A DNA stretch of 32,881 bases from a virus (taxonomy: Duplodnaviria > Caudoviricetes): positions 1-32,881 of the IMG/VR virus record IMGVR_UViG_3300045599_000046; one strand, 5' to 3'. The position numbers and the translations under genes are program-made. Within the stretch, counting starts at the first letter, position 1, and every line of letters begins with the position of its first letter. Positions 2,855 to 31,281 of the stretch are shown one piece after another. The notes below the pieces were generated by a model. The model searched no databases. It was not told the DNA's origin and saw only the letters and a list, made by a program, of their open reading frames with translations.

Positions 2855-3586
2855 TTAAATCTCTATCCCTGCTTTTTGAAAAAAACGTCTCAACTTTTCA
2901 GTATTGGCAATTGTTTCACCAATATTCATATCTTTACTTGCTATTAATTCGAATGGTTGTATGGAATTGTCATATACCATATATTCATCTAGCAAGTCCT
3001 TAATTTCACGAAAAGTTGAAGCAACTTTGGAGTGGCTTTCGACAATTACACTTTCTGGGACGAATCGTCCATCAGCTTCTAGTCGGATTTTGGCTCTTTC
3101 TTTAGCAACATCTAAGGGAACATCAACAACGATAGCACTTACTTTATAGCCTCTCTGTTTTAATGCCTCAATAATTTCCTTATATTTGTCAAGGTTTTTC
3201 ATTGTACCATCATACATGAAACTTCTTTTCTCAGCTATGCAACGCATTAGTAATTTACTAGCGATATCAGAACTCTCTTCATGAACATAATCAGCAGCCT
3301 CAAGCGGATTTTCATTTGCCATCTGCCTAAATTCTGGCAAGTGTTCCTTGATAACATCAGCATCAATTAAAGTCATATGTCCTGTTTCTTCTCTGTACTG
3401 GGCTAAAAAATAACTTCCAATGGTACTTTTTCCAGCGGCTGAGCCACCACCCAATAAAAATGAGTCTGGGCTTTCTATATCAATTTGATCTCCATGAAGA
3501 AATTCATTAATGATATCCTCATGAAGAAGTTGTCTCTCAGCGTAATATTCTCCGTCACTTTGGTAAATTGATTTGGTTGTTTCCAT
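2855..3586 (-). CDS. Zeta toxin family P-loop kinase
   Basis: Walker A GGGSAAGKS, IDAD, YDGT and R..ADGRFVP motifs typical of the zeta/PezT-like family. Confidence 0.85.
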   Translation of the reverse strand: METTKSIYQSDGEYYAERQLLHEDIINEFLHGDQIDIESPDSFLLGGGSAAGKSTIGSYFLAQYREETGHMTLIDADVIKEHLPEFRQMANENPLEAADYVHEESSDIASKLLMRCIAEKRSFMYDGTMKNLDKYKEIIEALKQRGYKVSAIVVDVPLDVAKERAKIRLEADGRFVPESVIVESHSKVASTFREIKDLLDEYMVYDNSIQPFELIASKDMNIGETIANTEKLRRFFQKAGIEI

Positions 3587-3660
3587 ATCAATAACTCCTT
3601 TGTCCCATTGTTACATATACATGAAATTTTTGGCATATTAGAAATGCATATACTTCTGTT

Positions 3661-3689
3661 ATTCTACAACTTATGTATAAATCTTACAA
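3661..3689 (-). promoter_or_regulatory. Putative sigA promoter of the zeta-like gene
   Basis: TTGTAA-17 nt-TAGAAT on the minus strand. Confidence 0.45.
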
Positions 3690-3841
3690 TAAGTAGGACT
3701 TGAGTAATAGACGAAATTACGCCAAAAAAACATATCATTTATTTAATAGGAACGTATTGCCATTCGTCCATACAATTTTCTAGGAAAATCTACTAAAATA
3801 TTAAAAATTGTTGATAGAATAGGGGAGGGGAGAACATAAAC

Positions 3842-3863
3842 AAAAGCCACCATCCCGGTGGCT
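3842..3863 (-). terminator. Intrinsic terminator after the antirepressor/RsfA-like gene
   Basis: AGCCACC...GGTGGCT followed by TTT on the minus strand. Confidence 0.6.
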
Positions 3864-3876
3864 CAATGTATAAAAC

Positions 3877-4890
3877 TCACACTCTTTCTAAATTACCATT
3901 TCGATCCATCCTAAAAGTCTTCCCAAGTTCTTCGTTTACCTTAATTTTTATTGCTGCACTAATCGTTGCTTGTGTAGACTTTAGCTCATCAAGGAGAACT
4001 TTCTTCTCGTTACTAAGGCGCTTGACTTGTTTTCTTAGCCTTTCATTCTCCGTTTGTAAAGAGGTGGCTTTCTCTCGTAAGAGTGTAAATATTTCTGAGT
4101 TAGAATTGTCTACACGTTCCTGGATGTTAATTATTTTTTGAATTACTTCATTTAACACTAGCTCTTGCCAAGTAGGTATTGTGATATCATCTGTTTCGGG
4201 TAGCGCTTCATTATTTACGACAAGCTTTAAATGTCCATTTTTCCTGTTCTTCTTACTTCTGTTCTGCAAGTCATGTGTGTTCACTTGTTTCTTTATATAA
4301 TTATGAAATCTACTTTGACACGCTGCTACTGATTTGTTTAGTTTTTTTGCCGCTATTTTACAACCATCAGTTATTGTTCCACCATCATTAATTGTCGAGA
4401 TAATAATGTCATATAATTTTAAATCTATCCCATCCCAACTGCTTCCTCTTGTTGCTTGTGACCGCTGTTGTTGTGTTGCAGATTCTTCAATATTAAGAAG
4501 ATAGGTTCTGACCTGTTTAGCAACTGGACTGTCACGGAGGAGCATACCGATGCGCAAGCAACAACGGCGATTTATAATAGTTAAATTTGACTTAGCAGAT
4601 AGATGGACATTGTGTCCAGCTATTCTTTTCTTGTACTCTTTAAGCTTTTCACCTCTTAAAATATTTAAGCCATCCGAATCTAGTTCATCTCTATGTCTTT
4701 GAATTATCTTTCGTATTACCTCAATATCAACTTGATAATACTCAGCGACCATATCAGTTGTCATATGCTTATCATCTGGAAGTATAGACAGCACTTTGAC
4801 TTTGTTTAATACATCAGTTCGTTCAATATGTTTTTCTCTGAGCGCCTTATCATCTACAAATGCTTCTTGGTTTAATACACTGGCTTCCAT
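3877..4890 (-). CDS. Phage antirepressor-type N-terminal domain fused to an RsfA-like regulator
   Basis: N-terminal MVAEYYQV...LRIGMLLRDSPVAKQVRTYLL; central W..D..L...I..GGT...LNKSVAAC..RFHN; C-terminal coiled coil and FRMDRNGNLERV. Confidence 0.65.
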   Translation of the reverse strand: MEASVLNQEAFVDDKALREKHIERTDVLNKVKVLSILPDDKHMTTDMVAEYYQVDIEVIRKIIQRHRDELDSDGLNILRGEKLKEYKKRIAGHNVHLSAKSNLTIINRRCCLRIGMLLRDSPVAKQVRTYLLNIEESATQQQRSQATRGSSWDGIDLKLYDIIISTINDGGTITDGCKIAAKKLNKSVAACQSRFHNYIKKQVNTHDLQNRSKKNRKNGHLKLVVNNEALPETDDITIPTWQELVLNEVIQKIINIQERVDNSNSEIFTLLREKATSLQTENERLRKQVKRLSNEKKVLLDELKSTQATISAAIKIKVNEELGKTFRMDRNGNLERV

Positions 4891-5210
4891 GCTAAAACCT
4901 CCCCATTTTCGATGATAGGTTCAACTTGCAAATACTCGAAATCAGACTCATCGCAATTTTCATACTCAAACCATTTTAGAAAACCGTCTTCAGTTTCCAC
5001 TATCATGTCTTCGAAAGGTAATCCACACTCACCATACTCAATCAATTCGTCTGCTGTACAAAGTCGAGAATATGTAGCTTCATTTTTGACCCAGTCCTCA
5101 TCATCGGTGATTACTTCTGTGAGAGAAGATGATCCTTGTCCATTCTTGGGGTCGGGGAAAAGACAAATGTAGACTTTGCGAACGGGCAAATCTTTAATCA
5201 ACAAAGGCAT
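4872..5210 (-). CDS. Acidic hypothetical protein
   Basis: RBS AGGAGG, 112 aa; overlaps the start of the next gene. Confidence 0.7.
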   Translation of the reverse strand: MPLLIKDLPVRKVYICLFPDPKNGQGSSSLTEVITDDEDWVKNEATYSRLCTADELIEYGECGLPFEDMIVETEDGFLKWFEYENCDESDFEYLQVEPIIENGEVLAWKPVY

Positions 5211-5375
5211 ACTTTTTAACCTCCTGTATTCGTGAATTTATATTACTTGATTCACATGATATATCAAAAAATGATAAATGTAAATAGAGAATCTAAATTA
5301 GTTTAACTAATAAAGAACCCCTTTAAACAACACACAATTTATGATATATTTTTGATTAAATGGAGGTGTAGTTCT

Positions 5376-5624
5376 TTGTCTAAAATAATTATTACTCTGG
5401 ACAAAATATTAGATGAACTTAATATAACTAAAAACAAATTAGCAGTTGAAGCTAAGTTACGACCAAATTTAATAACTGAATTAACTGAAGGAAAATCCAA
5501 AGCCATTAAGTTTGAAACACTTATTAAAATATTAGATACAATTAATTCTATCGCCATAATTAAAAACATAGGGAAAACCTATCGAGTTGAAGATTTAATC
5601 TATTATGAATTTGAAAATTTATAA
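5376..5624 (+). CDS. Cro/C1-type HTH regulator
   Basis: ITKNKLAVEAKLRPNLITEL...IKFETL; RBS GGAGGTG favours TTG at 5376 over 5352. Confidence 0.8.
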   Translation: MSKIIITLDKILDELNITKNKLAVEAKLRPNLITELTEGKSKAIKFETLIKILDTINSIAIIKNIGKTYRVEDLIYYEFENL

Positions 5625-5636
5625 GGAGGGCTTTAA

Positions 5637-5792
5637 TTGTCTAATGATAGAATTAGATTTTCTAGCACCATAAAAAAAGAACTATATGAAGCACTTCAAA
5701 AACACTCTGAAAAAACTGATGTTCCAATCACAAAATTACTTGATCGGGCTGTAGAACAATTTTTAAGCAAACAAGAAAAAATCTCTGAATGA
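5637..5792 (+). CDS. Ribbon-helix-helix protein, 51 aa
   Basis: RBS AAGGAGG, TTG start; MSNDRIRFSSTIKKELYEALQKHSEKTDVPITKLLDRAVEQFL fits the RHH pattern; missing from the ORF track. Confidence 0.8.
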   Translation: MSNDRIRFSSTIKKELYEALQKHSEKTDVPITKLLDRAVEQFLSKQEKISE

Positions 5793-5846
5793 TATCAGAG
5801 GTTTTACATAAGTGCTCATTTATGCAGCAGCACTTAGAAGGGACTA

Positions 5847-6065
5847 ATGGATATGATTAAATGCAATATAAGAAGACTGATGGCAGATCAAAGAATAGAT
5901 GACATTTCAGAGTTAATTAGAATGTCAGGTGTAAGTCGTAATTCAATAAATAAACTATACAGAGAACAAGACATTGAAACGATAAAACTTGAAACATTGA
6001 TGAAAATCTGTGATACCTTCAACGTGAGATTATCTGAGCTACTTGAATATATTCCCGACAATTAA
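5847..6065 (+). CDS. Cro/C1-type HTH regulator
   Basis: ISELIRMSGVSRNSINKLY...IKLETLMKICDTFNVRLSELLEY. Confidence 0.85.
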   Translation: MDMIKCNIRRLMADQRIDDISELIRMSGVSRNSINKLYREQDIETIKLETLMKICDTFNVRLSELLEYIPDN

Positions 6066-6091
6066 GATTTAAATTTATGGAGAATAACTAA

Positions 6092-6298
6092 ATGAAAATT
6101 AAAGTAACTCCAAAGTTAAGTAAATTACTTAAGGAAAGAAACATGAAACAAATAGAATTGTCTATTCTCACTGGACTTCCACAGGGAACAATTTCTCGAT
6201 TTGATAGGACAAATAGACATGATGATTTGAATCTTTTCATTATAGCAAGAGCACTAAATGTTAACATTGAAGACTTATTTGAAATAGAAGAGGAGTAG
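6092..6298 (+). CDS. XRE-family HTH regulator
   Basis: MKQIELSILTGLPQGTISRF...IARALNVNIEDLF. Confidence 0.85.
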   Translation: MKIKVTPKLSKLLKERNMKQIELSILTGLPQGTISRFDRTNRHDDLNLFIIARALNVNIEDLFEIEEE

Positions 6299-6404: not shown

Positions 6405-7019
6405 TTAAAGTTTGTCTTTATGGGTGTTTTTACGTTTCTCATCATACTCCCCACTGTAATTTTTACTCTCATACATAATCGTATGAGTAATTTTATAATT
6501 TTCTCCAAATAATACCAAGTTTACAACGGTATCTTCAGTCTCCCATTGTGTTAAATAGTTTAAATGCCCTAATGAAACAGCAAGGCCATATTCTTCAGGA
6601 TCATTCTTATATAAACTTTTAGACCAGATTTCATTGTCTTCAAATGGCTCTCCATATTTTTCTGTTAATAATTTTTTTAAATCTTTATAATCTGATATAT
6701 AGTCATTTTTATTTGTATGAGTTTCTTTTATACTATACATTGCTTTTGCTAATTTATCATCTACAAAAGCATAAGATAATGTAGCATCTAATCCATTAAT
6801 CGAATCTTTATACGAAAGAAAAGAGTCCTTTTCAGATGGTACTAAACTCTCTGATTTCTTAACTTCTTCTTGTGACATTCCCCATGTTGTCTTTCTAAAC
6901 GTGAAGTTCTGATTTTCTTCAATAGGTTGAATGTTAGACGTGCTGGCATCAGAATTATCTGAGCATCCACTTAATATCATGAAAGAAGACACTACTAAAA
7001 GCATAGCCCATTTCCACAC
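6405..7019 (-). CDS. Lipoprotein of unknown function
   Basis: Signal peptide with lipobox LSGC; TTWGMSQEEVK motif. Confidence 0.8.
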   Translation of the reverse strand: MWKWAMLLVVSSFMILSGCSDNSDASTSNIQPIEENQNFTFRKTTWGMSQEEVKKSESLVPSEKDSFLSYKDSINGLDATLSYAFVDDKLAKAMYSIKETHTNKNDYISDYKDLKKLLTEKYGEPFEDNEIWSKSLYKNDPEEYGLAVSLGHLNYLTQWETEDTVVNLVLFGENYKITHTIMYESKNYSGEYDEKRKNTHKDKL

Positions 7020-7147
7020 TATAATCCCCCTCCTAGTTTGTTTTTACCATTATTATACACCAAAAAATAATAATTTTAATCATAATTTCCAAATTAATAG
7101 TAAAATTGTCCTTTTCTTTGAGGTGAGAGGAGGGGAGGGAAGAGTGA

Positions 7148-7333
7148 TTATTTAAAAATAAGAGTTTGTGTAGATGGTATGATTGTAGAGTAGTCACCAT
7201 CTCCAGGTTGACGTTCTCCTGGTTCTAAGCGAATCCCCATTTCTTTTAGACATTTAATAACATAATTTTGTCGTTCTTCAAAAGTCATTTTACGGGTATC
7301 GATATAGGATAATTTACCGTTCATTTTAATCAC
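7148..7333 (-). CDS. Hypothetical protein
   Basis: Short ORF co-oriented with the late genes; AGGTG RBS suggests ATG at 7325. Confidence 0.55.
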   Translation of the reverse strand: MIKMNGKLSYIDTRKMTFEERQNYVIKCLKEMGIRLEPGERQPGDGDYSTIIPSTQTLIFK

Positions 7334-7403
7334 CTATAATTTATTTGAAAGAGAGTGATAAAAATTCCAAATAAAATAATGGTTTTAACTGAATATTTTG
7401 CTT

Positions 7404-8387
7404 TTAAAACAAGTCTGTAACATCATCTTCATCTTCTCGAACAACATATATCTTAGTTGTTTCACTAGACTCGTGCCCTAATAATGATTTTACTTTCTCA
7501 ATATTTTTGCCTTCTACTGCAACCAGATTAGTAGCTCTTGAGGCTCTAAGTTGGTGTGGATGAACACGCCTCCCAACAATTTCGCTAAATACATTTGTGC
7601 ACCAATCATTGAATGTTGAAGCTGATAATTGTCTCACTTTACCTTCTTTTGTTTTTTTCACAAATACATATGGACAATCATCCTCACCACGGACTTCAAG
7701 CCATTTATTGATAGCGCCTTTAGAAACGTCACTGTAAATTAATTTTCTGATTTTACCAACCGACCCTTTCCCCTTAGTTCTAATATCATGTGTTCTATAG
7801 TATGGTAAATTCTCTCCTGTGCGTGGATCTTTGACATAATCATAATTAACAACTTCTTTTAAAAGTTGTACTGTTTCAGAGCGCCGACAGCCAGAATCAT
7901 ATGAAAACTGTATATATGCAACCATTTGCCATTCTTGACGTTTCTCTAACTCAGAAATTAAATTTTCAAGTTCTTCCACAGTAAGTGGCTTTTTTTCATG
8001 TTTAAAAGATTTTGGGGGATTGGGTATTTGCTTACTATAAATATTTCTAAACAATGGATACTCGTCCGAGTAGTACAATTCCAAATACCCACATAAAGAT
8101 GACACTGCCGATCTTTTGAATTTTACTGCACTTGAAGATAATTCTCTACTCATAAGAAAATTCTGATACTGTAGAGCATGTCTTGGCTTTAATTCATATA
8201 AAGGCAAGTTATTAAATTTATCATGAATGAAACGAAAAAAGATTCTTAATGCTGATTCATATTGAATTCTTGTATGTGGACTTAAATGCTGTTGCTGTAA
8301 GAATTCTTCTGTTTTTTCACGATTAAATTCATTAACTTTATTCCATTCTTCAATGGTCACTTCTGGTATTTTTTTAATCTTACTCAC
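7404..8387 (-). CDS. Tyrosine recombinase (SPbeta YomM-like position)
   Basis: SGCRRSE, KGKG, HPHQLRASRAT, LLGH, TTKIY catalytic motifs. Confidence 0.9.
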   Translation of the reverse strand: MSKIKKIPEVTIEEWNKVNEFNREKTEEFLQQQHLSPHTRIQYESALRIFFRFIHDKFNNLPLYELKPRHALQYQNFLMSRELSSSAVKFKRSAVSSLCGYLELYYSDEYPLFRNIYSKQIPNPPKSFKHEKKPLTVEELENLISELEKRQEWQMVAYIQFSYDSGCRRSETVQLLKEVVNYDYVKDPRTGENLPYYRTHDIRTKGKGSVGKIRKLIYSDVSKGAINKWLEVRGEDDCPYVFVKKTKEGKVRQLSASTFNDWCTNVFSEIVGRRVHPHQLRASRATNLVAVEGKNIEKVKSLLGHESSETTKIYVVREDEDDVTDLF

Positions 8388-8399
8388 TAAATCACCTAC

Positions 8400-8897
8400 T
8401 TAAATTTTCTTACCTTTGTAATGACCTTCCTTGGTAATTTTAAAACCCCACTTATTTTTTGCATTGAATTCATTTATTGCTTTCTCTACAAAGTGGAACC
8501 CTTCATAATAACTTAGATGATGAATGCCAATATTATTATTCCATTCCCATCCCTCATTAATTAGTATTGGTGTAAAACCTGCATCGCCTCCAAAAAGAGA
8601 GGGGTGCGTAGCAGAGTCTTGATCAAAATACACTGAAATAGATAATTCGTTGCCATTTTGAGTGATAGGAGAGATTCTTAATGAATTGAGGAGTCCAAAA
8701 GTTCTTGTATAACCACCTGGATCTACTGGAGTGTAAGAGTCATAATAAGCTTGTAGTTGTTTATGTAAAAGTTTATATAGTAAATCTGCCGCCTCTTTTA
8801 AGGCGATCATCATATTATTCGATCCAGTAATTGCTTGTGTGCCTTTTTGACTGGAAAGGTACTTAGCTAAATCATTTAGATTCTTGAATGTTGCCAT
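8400..8897 (-). CDS. Phage tail-region protein (tail completion-like)
   Basis: Position in the tail module; Y.RT..L..S motif. Confidence 0.55.
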   Translation of the reverse strand: MATFKNLNDLAKYLSSQKGTQAITGSNNMMIALKEAADLLYKLLHKQLQAYYDSYTPVDPGGYTRTFGLLNSLRISPITQNGNELSISVYFDQDSATHPSLFGGDAGFTPILINEGWEWNNNIGIHHLSYYEGFHFVEKAINEFNAKNKWGFKITKEGHYKGKKI

Positions 8898-9392
8898 CTA
8901 ATGTATTACCTCAGTTTCACTATTAATCGATAATTTATCTAAATTTTCTTCTTCTGCAAGTTTTTTCGCTTCAATAGCAACTTTTGAAACAATTTGTCTC
9001 AATTCTAGTAGTAAGTTTTCTAATTCTGTCTTATTAAATTCCTCAAGTATTTTCTTTGTGTATTCACCATCGTCTAGTATACTCATCATTTCAAGTAACC
9101 CATCATAGCCTTCTGCGTTTGTCTCAATGGATGTAAAATGCTTAATAGCTAACATGACACTCAATGCTAAAATTACTTCAGTATCAAAAACTTTCTTGTT
9201 TTGCAATCCTTCAACTACTACTTCCATAAATTCTGTGAATAGTTGATTCTTCTTCGAAGGGCGAAACACAAGATCTATATCTAATTTTGCATTGTCAAAT
9301 TGTACTCTTTTTTTATCTTTAAACTTTTGTGTGTTTTGTTTTTTAATTTGATTCAAGGATAAATTTTTCATATTTTTACTCAAAATGATCAT
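8898..9392 (-). CDS. Probable tail assembly chaperone-like protein
   Basis: Follows the tail tube gene; helical and acidic; true start may be slightly downstream (TTG/ATG). Confidence 0.5.
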   Translation of the reverse strand: MIILSKNMKNLSLNQIKKQNTQKFKDKKRVQFDNAKLDIDLVFRPSKKNQLFTEFMEVVVEGLQNKKVFDTEVILALSVMLAIKHFTSIETNAEGYDGLLEMMSILDDGEYTKKILEEFNKTELENLLLELRQIVSKVAIEAKKLAEEENLDKLSINSETEVIH

Positions 9393-9431
9393 CTCCCAAT
9401 AATTTTTTTTAATTTAAATAGAAAAGTAGGG

Positions 9432-9491
9432 CAGGGGAGGTAAGATATGACCTTACACCACAGAATGTGTTCTTCCTTAAACTACACCCCT
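9432..9491 (-). ncRNA. 60-nt tRNA-like element with a vestigial anticodon arm
   Basis: AGGGGTG/CTCCCCT acceptor stem, TA linker, D arm GTTT-AAGGAA-GAAC, T-like arm GTAAG-GTCATAT-CTTAC, discriminator G. Confidence 0.55.
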
Positions 9492-9509
9492 AAAGCGATT
9501 GAAGAATAT

Positions 9510-9542
9510 AAATAAAAGGCGCATCCATTTTGGATACGCCTA
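9510..9542 (-). terminator. Intrinsic terminator after the tail tube gene
   Basis: AGGCGTATCC-AAAAT-GGATGCGCCT followed by TTTATTT on the minus strand. Confidence 0.75.
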
Positions 9543-9564
9543 ATAAGTATATTATATTTTATTT

Positions 9565-10329
9565 TTAAACGAGTTCGTCTTCATCATAAATTGTCATCAG
9601 CCACATGTCAGTGGAAGTAGGCGATTTAAGAATCTCCAGGTTTAAGTCGAGTACCGCAGGGTCCCCATCTACAGCAAGCGCCACGCTGAAATTATCTTCG
9701 AATTTGGCGACTGGGATTTCGATTTGAGCAGCAAAATCTTGTTGTGTATATTCATCTCGAACCAAACATTGTAAAACAACTCTAAATGTTTGTCCAAACT
9801 TATCAGATGTAACTCTCAAGGTTTTTGCTGTTGAATCTGTAGAAGTAGAGTAGTAGATGGAAACTTTTTCTCCGTCTATAACTCCAGAGGTAAATTCCAC
9901 TTCTTTACCAGTAACATCATACTCTGTTGAATCAATTTCCTGTCCTAATGTACCGTCCTCATTAATTACAAAGACTCCAACCAAATCCCCAACTGGTGTA
10001 CTACTTAATGTCACCTTGCCACTTACGACATCAAGCTCTTCGTAACGGGAAATATTTCTCGCACCCTCAATAAGATCATTCCCTGTCAACATTGCTAGCG
10101 CTTTATTATCAAATATTGCGTCAGATAATGTTAATTTTGCTTCTCGGTTACCAGAAAATCCGACAAGTTTAGGATTACCAAAACCTCCACGAGCATAAAC
10201 TGTTTCACCAGTATTTTCCAAACCACTAGTCTTTAATGTTTTCAGAGTAACCACAGGTTTTTTGGTCTTTAAACTATAAAATGTTGCGATACCAGCATCT
10301 CGAATTGCCCATCTGTTAGGTGTTGCCAT
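9565..10329 (-). CDS. Major tail tube protein
   Basis: VYARGGFGNPKL and DGDPAV motifs of SPbeta/Clostridium-type tail tubes; strong RBS and downstream terminator. Confidence 0.75.
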   Translation of the reverse strand: MATPNRWAIRDAGIATFYSLKTKKPVVTLKTLKTSGLENTGETVYARGGFGNPKLVGFSGNREAKLTLSDAIFDNKALAMLTGNDLIEGARNISRYEELDVVSGKVTLSSTPVGDLVGVFVINEDGTLGQEIDSTEYDVTGKEVEFTSGVIDGEKVSIYYSTSTDSTAKTLRVTSDKFGQTFRVVLQCLVRDEYTQQDFAAQIEIPVAKFEDNFSVALAVDGDPAVLDLNLEILKSPTSTDMWLMTIYDEDELV

Positions 10330-10344
10330 TGATAAAATTCCTCC

Positions 10345-11094
10345 TTAATATTTTACTTTTTTTGTCCAATGTAAATTAGACATATTTATTTGATTACCAT
10401 CCACTGTACCAGCGTACATTCCTGATAAAGTGAATTGGTAATTATCAACTTGATCCAGTCGAAGTAAAGCATCATAAAATTGAAAAATATTCATTTCAAA
10501 TACATTGAAGATGTTTATATTATTTGACTTCCAAGCAATCCCTGATATTTTACTTGCCAAGCTGAACATAGGCTCTTTTATTTTCAATATTTCAGATTTT
10601 ATTTTTTTTATTTCGTTAATAAAACTTTTAGTTTTTTCCCCAGCAGGATTATATTCTTCTTCTTCAAACTTCACATTGTTAGCTACCTTCACTAACTCTT
10701 GAATCAAATCAAAATTATTATTATCGAGTCTCTTATTTTCTGTAATATCTCCAAAATAAAAAAAGAGTCCCAAATCTTCTGGACTCATAAAAACTTCGTC
10801 TTTAAAGAATATGTACATAGCTTGTTTGAAGTCATTCCAAAAAGTTTCACTGTAGTAGCAATTTACGTATGTAATATCAAAATTTGTTAGCTCATCAGGA
10901 TTTTTTAATCCTTTAATAGTATCTTTATTAATAAGCAAAAGAGAGATTAAACTATTATATCTATTTTCTCCGATTTTAATAATTTCTTTTAGAGTAGGGA
11001 TGTGGAATTCTATCCCACTATTGCCTATTGGTATAGGAATATTGGCAAGCATTTTTAATTCAATATCACTGTTATTCATGAGATATATCCTCAA
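10345..11094 (-). CDS. Conserved phage tail-module protein
   Basis: C-terminal GMYAGTVD...LHW motif; synteny. Confidence 0.6.
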   Translation of the reverse strand: MRIYLMNNSDIELKMLANIPIPIGNSGIEFHIPTLKEIIKIGENRYNSLISLLLINKDTIKGLKNPDELTNFDITYVNCYYSETFWNDFKQAMYIFFKDEVFMSPEDLGLFFYFGDITENKRLDNNNFDLIQELVKVANNVKFEEEEYNPAGEKTKSFINEIKKIKSEILKIKEPMFSLASKISGIAWKSNNINIFNVFEMNIFQFYDALLRLDQVDNYQFTLSGMYAGTVDGNQINMSNLHWTKKVKY

Positions 11095-11567
11095 TTAAAT
11101 TCCCACAGCTTATAGGCAATATAACTGCCTATATAATCTGTGTTAACGAATAATACTTCATCCATCTTTTCAAATTTTAATCTGCCTATGCCCAATCCCA
11201 ATTTTCCATTAACCAATTTGTCTATTTCTGAAATTATATAGTCGTATCTAAGAAAACCATAGTCAGTAATTGCTAAATCTTTATGGGTAATTGCAGAGAT
11301 ACTAATTATTCCAGACTTATAAGCACTTTTTACCAATTGATAATTCCTAAACGACAATAAAATATATGTTGAAACATCTTTCTCGCTATCTGGTACTCGA
11401 TAGAAGGGGAATATTTTATTCATAATTAAATCGGAGGGGTCAATAATATCTGGCTGATCTAAAAAATTAGGCTTATCGTACTTTAAAGCCTTGCATATTC
11501 CTTGTGACGATAATATTCTTTCAATTATTGTAATTTTATCTTTACTCAAATCTTGCAATCTTAGCAC
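11091..11567 (-). CDS. Tail terminator-like protein
   Basis: LRYD.I..EID...G.G motif; synteny. Confidence 0.55.
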   Translation of the reverse strand: MLRLQDLSKDKITIIERILSSQGICKALKYDKPNFLDQPDIIDPSDLIMNKIFPFYRVPDSEKDVSTYILLSFRNYQLVKSAYKSGIISISAITHKDLAITDYGFLRYDYIISEIDKLVNGKLGLGIGRLKFEKMDEVLFVNTDYIGSYIAYKLWEFN

Positions 11568-26805: not shown

Positions 26806-26816
26806 TATATCACTCC

Positions 26817-26987
26817 TTATTCAACTTCTTCAAATTCTGTTCCAACTGGAATTTCATATTCTTCGTTGGGCTTGACTTTAATTTTATCCCCATTAACTTC
26901 GACAGTGATCACTTTTGCAGAGGGGTAAAGATCATATAGAATATCACGAACTTCATTAAGCCCTTTAGTTTTTTGATTAGAACTCAT
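26817..26987 (-). CDS. 56-aa hypothetical protein
   Basis: RBS GGGAGAG; MSSNQKTKGLNEVRDILYDLYPSAKVITVEV...; fills the gap in the operon. Confidence 0.65.
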   Translation of the reverse strand: MSSNQKTKGLNEVRDILYDLYPSAKVITVEVNGDKIKVKPNEEYEIPVGTEFEEVE

Positions 26988-27027
26988 ATTAAAACTCTCC
27001 CTTGTTATATTTTTTTAAGATGTCATT

Positions 27028-31032: not shown

Positions 31033-31056
31033 CATTGATGAATATCTATTTATAAT
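31029..31056 (+). promoter_or_regulatory. Consensus sigA promoter
   Basis: TTGACA-16 nt-TATAAT. Confidence 0.75.
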
Positions 31057-31062
31057 ACTAGG

Positions 31063-31184
31063 TAGGCGATTTTTTGTCATTTCAAGATGCAATTTTTAGC
31101 CTACCCTAGGCGAAAAGTTGTCATTTCAAAGTACAAAAATTATCCTAGGGTAGGCGATTTTTTGTCATTTCAAAGTACAAAAAT
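31063..31184 (+). repeat. Three direct repeats with an exact 44-bp period (iteron-like)
   Basis: TAGGCGA....TTGTCATTTCAA...CAA at 31063, 31107 and 31151. Confidence 0.9.
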
Positions 31185-31281
31185 CAGGGAGGTATATACA
31201 GTGATTACATCTATACAAAGATAACATCTATACATAAAGCAAACACATGTAATCAAGACACGTAATCATACAAGAAAGTAG

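Follow-up and report, generated by a model that had tools for sequence, protein, structure and literature searches.

The window, meaning here the whole 32,881-nucleotide stretch of DNA that was analyzed, belongs to an SPbeta/Tsamsa-like phage and covers part of a morphogenesis operon carried on the minus strand. The source phage is large, Bacillus-type and SPbeta-like. Its operon runs from the terminase, portal and structural genes to the tail tube, a YomO-family gene, a virion protein and a recombinase, with the tape-measure gene later on. The features that frame the gap after the tail-tube gene are as follows.

9565..10329, minus strand: tail tube / major tail protein gene (phrog_2729), upstream of the element
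9507..9541, minus strand: intrinsic terminator of the tail-tube gene, an 11-bp hairpin and a U tract
9432..9491, minus strand: tRNA-Trp-derived element (by sequence comparison) without an anticodon arm; position 1 is 9491 and G73 is 9432
9393..9397, minus strand: Shine-Dalgarno sequence of the yomO gene, 34 nt past the element end
8898..9392, minus strand: YomO-family gene (PF27287 YomO, phrog_7383), downstream of the element
8400..8897, minus strand: virion structural protein gene; two phages have a gene at the same position that is annotated neck or tail completion
7404..8387, minus strand: Xer-type tyrosine recombinase, conserved in SPbeta/Tsamsa-like tail modules

Relatives of the tube gene (29-34% identity) are annotated as tail tube or major tail protein. 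Position alone would make YomO a tail-assembly chaperone; a search of the open-access literature found no account of its function. The hairpin at 9541-9517 is the only terminator-like site in the interval 7000-11500. The element lies where the earlier note had placed it, between this terminator and the next gene, starting 25 nt past the former and ending 34 nt before the Shine-Dalgarno sequence of the latter. Because no promoter-like site was found between terminator and element, the element would be transcribed by read-through. No tRNA genes were found in the window, and the element stands alone in the structural operon.

Elsewhere in the window, the interval 26806-27027, which follows HU and phoH, carries no tRNA. 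Phage vB_BcoS-136 has a tRNA cluster at this place, and an unannotated tRNA-like match inside that cluster (L128:2863-2929) scores 24.7 bits. Inserted between the recombinase and tape-measure genes (2855-6298) are genes for a zeta-toxin-family protein and for a putative regulator, together with two small HTH genes. At 272-2318 the tape-measure ORF ends after 539 amino acids and is followed by a gap that by eye resembles an intron or nuclease insertion; among related loci the tube gene is split by intron-like interruptions in L005, L023, L029 and L030. Short direct repeats beside a replication-initiator-like gene (31033-31281) possibly mark an origin, as judged by eye.

The element is 60 nt long and is read on the minus strand in the order below.

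9485..9491, minus strand: 5' strand of the acceptor stem, preceded by U at -1 (9492)
9469..9482, minus strand: D arm, a 4-bp stem and a 6-nt loop with A14, A15, G18G19 and A21
9457..9468, minus strand: 12 nt replacing positions 26-48, an anticodon-arm stub and a Trp-like variable region
9440..9456, minus strand: T arm, a 5-bp stem and a 7-nt loop with G54 and U58
9429..9439, minus strand: 3' strand of the acceptor stem, G73 and C74 C75 C76; RCC is kept and CCA is not encoded

Acceptor positions 9491-9485 pair with 9439-9433 in six of seven pairs, the exception being a U-U mismatch at 6-67, and U8A9 follows the 5' strand. The earlier note had described a 7-bp acceptor stem with one mismatch, U8A9, a D stem and a T-like arm, with 12 nt in place of the anticodon and variable arms and no encoded CCA. 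All of the stems sit at their claimed minus-strand place, the 12 nt stand in for positions 26-48, and the sequence reads CCC in place of CCA after G73. The non-decoding nature that it claimed is evident from the sequence. In fold prediction the anticodon stub can form 2-3 bp with a 3-nt loop.

Covariance models, a descriptor and standard programs were used for detection. A generic tRNA model, consisting of 95 tRNA matches of many isotypes aligned through the Trp model, scores the element at 28.1 bits (E = 3.8e-6), with the next best match at 13.1. The Trp model, which was picked only after the Trp likeness had been noticed, gives 37.9 bits (E = 1.3e-7) and a next best match of 6.7. In a scan with a purpose-made descriptor the element (score 32.9) is the sole window match scoring at least 10, and its score is reached by none of 150 window shuffles (maximum 14.0) and none of 20,000 gap shuffles (maximum 13.5). 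ARAGORN called no tRNA in the window and missed the element. The Rfam search that the earlier note had proposed as a check came back empty at E ≤ 1 in the window, the models for Y RNA, C4 and mascRNA included. The folding energy of the element is ordinary (z = -0.10), and predicted cloverleaf forms lie 2.3-5.2 kcal/mol above the MFE. The element at 9491-9432 is confirmed as real, beyond chance.

Arm-by-arm comparison was used to trace the ancestry of the element over 43 positions (acceptor, D-stem, T-arm and discriminator). The chromosomal tRNA-Trp(CCA) genes of four Bacillota genomes (loci L081-L084) share 31-32 of the 43 positions with it, two phage Trp genes share 27-28, and 75 other tRNAs share a mean of 19.9 (sd 3.2, maximum 27). 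The D stem is identical to that of tRNA-Trp in three Bacillota genomes, and the Trp-type acceptor, D stem and G73 are all present. These comparisons indicate that the element is derived from a captured bacterial tRNA-Trp gene. Unlike the Bacillota tRNA-Trp(CCA), it has G54/U58, the 6-67 mismatch and the CCC end, and it is non-decoding: the anticodon arm is shortened from 17 to 7 nt, with the 5-bp stem, 7-nt loop and CCA anticodon of tRNA-Trp gone. The D loop is also shortened. The earlier note had called the element a tRNA mimic without an anticodon arm; the arm loss stands, and an origin from scratch is set aside since the sequence points to derivation from a tRNA-Trp gene. The stems differ from Bacillota Trp at 7-8 positions with 15 of 16 pairs intact, including double changes at 7-66 and 52-62, and random placement of the changes spares as many pairs in 2.2-3.4% of 200,000 trials. 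The compensated changes cannot be dated relative to the loss of the arm and could precede it.

The T loop departs from the tRNA consensus. U54 is changed to G54 and A58 to U58, while U55 and C56 are kept; of the other elbow features G18G19 and A15-U48 are present. Among 201 real tRNAs the T arm was resolved in 198, and 197 of these retain U54 and A58; the remaining one carries A54/U58 instead. It is possible that G54/U58 is a coupled T-loop variant, because purine54/U58 loops recur in 15 gut-phage loci (A54/U58) and in one phage tRNA-Phe. These variant loops carry A54 and never the G54 of the element. The T arm can alternatively close as a plain 7-bp hairpin with a predicted probability of 0.5-0.6.

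The element is known from one genome; one DNA sequencing run, possibly the source, is identical over the stretch. A blastn search of the element against phages and a DNA search in five genomes gave short or chance matches only. A pattern search of IMG/VR for Trp-like arms with a shortened middle returned one match, a full tRNA-Ala; a pattern for the 3' half returned none, and no homolog of the element came out of these searches. Searches with yomO recovered only the window's own protein, and 401 genomes searched at order level added no close prophage. No remnant was found in 40 Paenibacillaceae stretches, where one intact tRNA-Val was the only hit, and the tail region of the C. tetani plasmid held no tRNA-shaped remnant.

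The same gap was surveyed at 174 loci with a complete tube-gene end, which form 91 clusters at 90% identity. A tRNA shape directly follows the tube terminator in three clusters, represented by the window, L001 and L043. The L001 gap holds a mini element with acceptor and T arm only, placed after a terminator similar to that of the window; it scores 17.1 bits (E = 0.018) and is the third-ranked match in its 146-kb genome. The window and L001 elements look like separate recruits, because the terminators are alike but the elements agree at only 14 of 32 top-half positions. The L043 element has a 6-nt anticodon loop and an encoded CCA and scores 34.2 bits. In a tube tree covering 50 of the 91 clusters and seven proteins, the window and L001 are the two DNA-bearing members, both with an element, of a 100/95-supported clade of nine rows; clade-mates P0067, P0071, P0072, P0073, P0075 and P0080, at 68-73% tube identity, are known as proteins only. 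Over this tree the tRNA-like label is not significantly clustered (four changes, with 58 of 500 shuffles as low).

Further tRNA shapes lie in the tail modules of other relatives. Two sister Bacillaceae prophages, G070 and G060, each have a tRNA shape in the tail module, 1.0-1.3 kb past the tube gene (L132:7519-7441 and L133:7385-7463). The D and T arms of these two elements are intact, but the anticodon arm is abnormal and CCA is missing; ARAGORN labels them Tyr(ATA) and unknown, and from the alignment they read as non-decoding. The isotype assignments of L001, L043, L132 and L133 were ambiguous, with Trp on top in none. All five remnants have lost the anticodon arm or have an abnormal one and keep the top half, and none lacks the T arm alone; this bias is partly built in because the element scan requires a T arm. 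A scan of 188 loci for D-plus-anticodon remnants gave just three complete tRNAs, and among the relatives' loci the post-tube gap turned up no intact tRNA. Descriptor matches scoring 16-20 in L026, L101, L146, L155 and L159 were taken as background.

Most relatives have nothing but a terminator in the gap, or else a plain hairpin, an RNA of int-alpA-like type or, judged by eye, promoter-like sequence. The int-alpA-like RNAs follow the tail-tube gene at L014:3307-3386 (above the Rfam cut-off), at L047:2862-2929 (below it) and, by eye, at about 1170-1270 in L051. The loops of those in L047 and L051 are complementary to sites near the ribosome-binding site of the next gene. Sigma-A-type promoter-like sequence was seen by eye in the post-tube gap of the Tsamsa-like loci L174-L176, L182, L222, L238 and L255.

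A distant parallel was found by way of the recombinase, in gut phages whose version of this protein is about 49% identical and lies in a different gene neighborhood. One terminator sequence recurs in 39 of their loci (L208-L266), and in 38 of these a 7-bp acceptor/5-bp T-stem geometry begins at the first base after the terminator U tract; many of the loci are near-copies, and their flanking genes may differ from locus to locus. The cassettes fall into 11 types (for example at L208:3486, L228:3493, L235:3486, L217:3423 and L260:3045) and include several tRNA-Tyr, a tRNA-Trp, odd long forms and three mini types. In the mini types, which occupy 11 loci, 11-13 nt stand where the D and anticodon arms would be. 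The four distinct rows of one mini family differ by three one-sided changes, all of which keep pairing, with no double change, and the covariation in this family is not above that of shuffles. By analogy, this pattern suggests that the gut sites keep tRNA shape rather than decoding function. The relationship between this slot and the window element is one of analogy and not homology, the recombinase being the sole link. The same phages hold other unusual tRNAs. A 68-69 nt tRNA-Trp(CCA) with a shrunken D arm (L209:8014-8082 and similar loci) recurs in many of them, and ARAGORN reports a tRNA with a TTA (stop-reading) anticodon at L208:7257-7341 and L220:7069-7153, where close relatives have tRNA-Leu(TAA). 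A mini tRNA shape with a G55 loop variant lies right after the recombinase terminator at L261:6053-6095 and in L262 and L264-L266.

The favored reading is that the element acts as an RNase P cut mark, similar to the t-elements of plant mitochondria, that splits a read-through late message; it is given an even chance of being right. Transcripts that read through the tail-tube terminator would fold the tRNA top half, and host RNase P would cut between 9492 and 9491. The tube message would retain the terminator hairpin as a protected 3' end, and the yomO-neck-recombinase message would begin with a tRNA-shaped body that either shields its 5' end or is trimmed slowly. C74-C75 may hinder or slow RNase Z. 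The identity of the tRNA would be irrelevant, so that any tRNA could be recruited and could then lose its anticodon arm. Of the substrate features, the element keeps U(-1), G73-C74-C75 and a 12-bp acceptor/T stack in which 11 of the 12 pairs are intact. Acceptor/T minihelices are substrates of bacterial RNase P; the enzyme favors U(-1) and pairs with the 3' RCC (PMC11143913, PMC10731613). In B. subtilis it cuts CCA-less precursors in vivo ahead of RNase Z, and RNase Z is blocked by CCA, as an excerpt of PMC1874595 relates.

Several observations count against the cut mark. The other 88 of 91 tube clusters have no tRNA shape directly after the terminator, and each of the other four remnants retains U54 and A58. 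The G54 of the element does not occur in the variant loops found elsewhere, and the alternative 7-bp hairpin competes with the T arm. When the T loop is replaced, RNase P cleavage is reduced and its position shifts (PMC11143913). The acceptor stem has a predicted probability of about 0.04 in the uncut leader; this is weak counter-evidence because 33 of 97 real tRNAs in context also score under 0.1. The earlier note had proposed a processing or stabilizing signal, and that proposal gains comparative support from the gaps of two relatives, from the finding of no intact tRNA there and from the gut cassettes; the lack of a homolog and a T loop without U54/A58 weigh against it.

The main rival to the cut mark, though a doubtful one, is that a host tRNA-Trp landed after the terminator at an insertion-tolerant spot, lost its anticodon arm and is now a functionless relic in decay. 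Decay would fit the joint change of U54 and A58, seen in 1 of 198 real tRNAs, as well as the acceptor mismatch, the short D loop, the CCC end and the ordinary folding energy. It would also fit an element that is present in one genome only and absent from 88 of 91 tube clusters, in a gap that accepts many unrelated insertions in relatives. Set against this, 15 of 16 stem pairs outlast 7-8 differences (P = 0.02-0.03), all five remnants have a lost or abnormal anticodon arm and none lacks the T arm alone, and an intact tRNA is never found in the gap, though fresh insertions would give some. An uncut structured leader, in which refolded tRNA hairpins shield the yomO mRNA or damp translation by pairing the complementary 3' acceptor strand with the Shine-Dalgarno sequence, is improbable. 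The changes at 66-67 do strengthen the Shine-Dalgarno duplex from -5.2 to -8.9 kcal/mol, the Shine-Dalgarno sequence is 82-98% paired in short folds of the uncut leader (67-88% in L001, which is similar), and 17 of 43 clusters with the tube gene beside yomO have at least two stable folds in the gap. This occlusion is gone once at least 40 coding bases are included (unpaired 0.5-0.7, cut or uncut), L043 shows no such pairing, and C-rich strands meet G-rich sites by chance. A cut-dependent Shine-Dalgarno switch was also considered and rejected; it was strong in one fold and was lost when the fold ends were changed.

Two further explanations carry little weight. Excision of a 60-nt small RNA by cuts at both ends, with CCA addition and action in trans as a decoy for tRNA-binding proteins or defense nucleases, is very unlikely, and the excised small RNA or decoy that the earlier note had offered as an option found no support. 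Retention of G73 and of the acceptor-stem features of tRNA-Trp would suit a decoy, as would the two small RNAs of unknown role that T4 yields from its tRNA region (a portion of PMC3014915). A low supply is expected, however, with no promoter-like site between terminator and element; the element offers no anticodon to anticodon nucleases, and relatives carry different isotypes or none. Least credible of all is a DNA attachment-site scar left by the nearby tyrosine recombinase or by another tRNA-Trp-integrating element. tRNA genes are common integration targets, and a tyrosine recombinase is encoded two genes downstream. Both tRNA halves are present at the locus, however, at only 72-74% identity to Bacillota Trp, and there is no near-identical 3' tRNA part, the top half matching the Trp genes of four Bacillota, possibly not including the host, at 21-22 of 32 positions. 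Conservation of the recombinase moreover extends to 94 phage records, and an element of this kind is missing from most of the examined tail modules.

The cut-mark reading can be widened into a tentative proposal, held at somewhat less than even confidence. SPbeta-like phages would use interchangeable tRNA-shaped cassettes after terminators as an mRNA punctuation code, in which any tRNA could be recruited and would shed its anticodon arm. Host RNase P would set the ratio of structural proteins by cutting the read-through message, and the Trp element would be one independent recruit, with a purine54/U58 variant of the T loop.

Several known systems resemble the element in part. Plant mitochondrial t-elements are non-canonical tRNA-like folds between genes that have been proposed as cis signals for RNase P and RNase Z in making mRNA ends, in the portion of Forner et al. 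(2007, PMC1920247) drawn on here. Like them, the phage element is a tRNA-like fold with a non-canonical cloverleaf and lies between genes on the coding strand. The phage element differs in occurring in a Bacillota phage after an intrinsic terminator, in being known from sequence alone, and in agreeing with the t-element T-arm motif GGTTCRANYCC at 7 of 11 positions only. By analogy it would work like a t-element, yet it is not classed as a member. The bacterial Y RNA YrlA is also tRNA-derived and non-decoding, and RNase P cleaves one member, which also acquires CCA (Chen et al. 2014, PMC4201824, in part). Unlike YrlA, as it appears there, the phage element has no Rfam match and has the ordinary linear tRNA order, and Ro60/TROVE, the gene that neighbors YrlA, has no match among the 36 ORFs of the 32.9-kb fragment. 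The phage C4 antisense RNA and the hisCD mRNA hairpin are precedents for RNase P cleavage of a phage non-coding RNA and of a polycistronic mRNA; the sections of PMC10731613 and PMC11143913 that treat them do not describe these substrates as derived tRNA genes, unlike the phage element, which for its part has no Rfam C4 match. T4 RNAC and RNAD, likewise small RNAs of a phage that are linked to tRNA genes, have no known role; in the segment of PMC3014915 concerned they sit in the tRNA region, whereas the window element stands by itself among structural genes. The open-access literature searched yielded no account of tRNA elements that lack an anticodon arm and follow terminators in SPbeta-like tail operons; tRNA-like candidates appear, without such detail in the part consulted, in a survey of structured viral RNAs (PMC10690425).

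Taken by its sequence, the element is a real host-derived, non-decoding tRNA remnant for which a function is plausible. The class of element shown here escapes ARAGORN and Rfam. If the cut mark is false, the element would be a well-dated case of a captured host tRNA decaying in a phage. If the cut mark is true, tRNA punctuation of the mitochondrial style would also operate in the late operons of phages, and shape rather than decoding would be the reason why some phage tRNA genes are retained, which would partly explain odd phage tRNAs.
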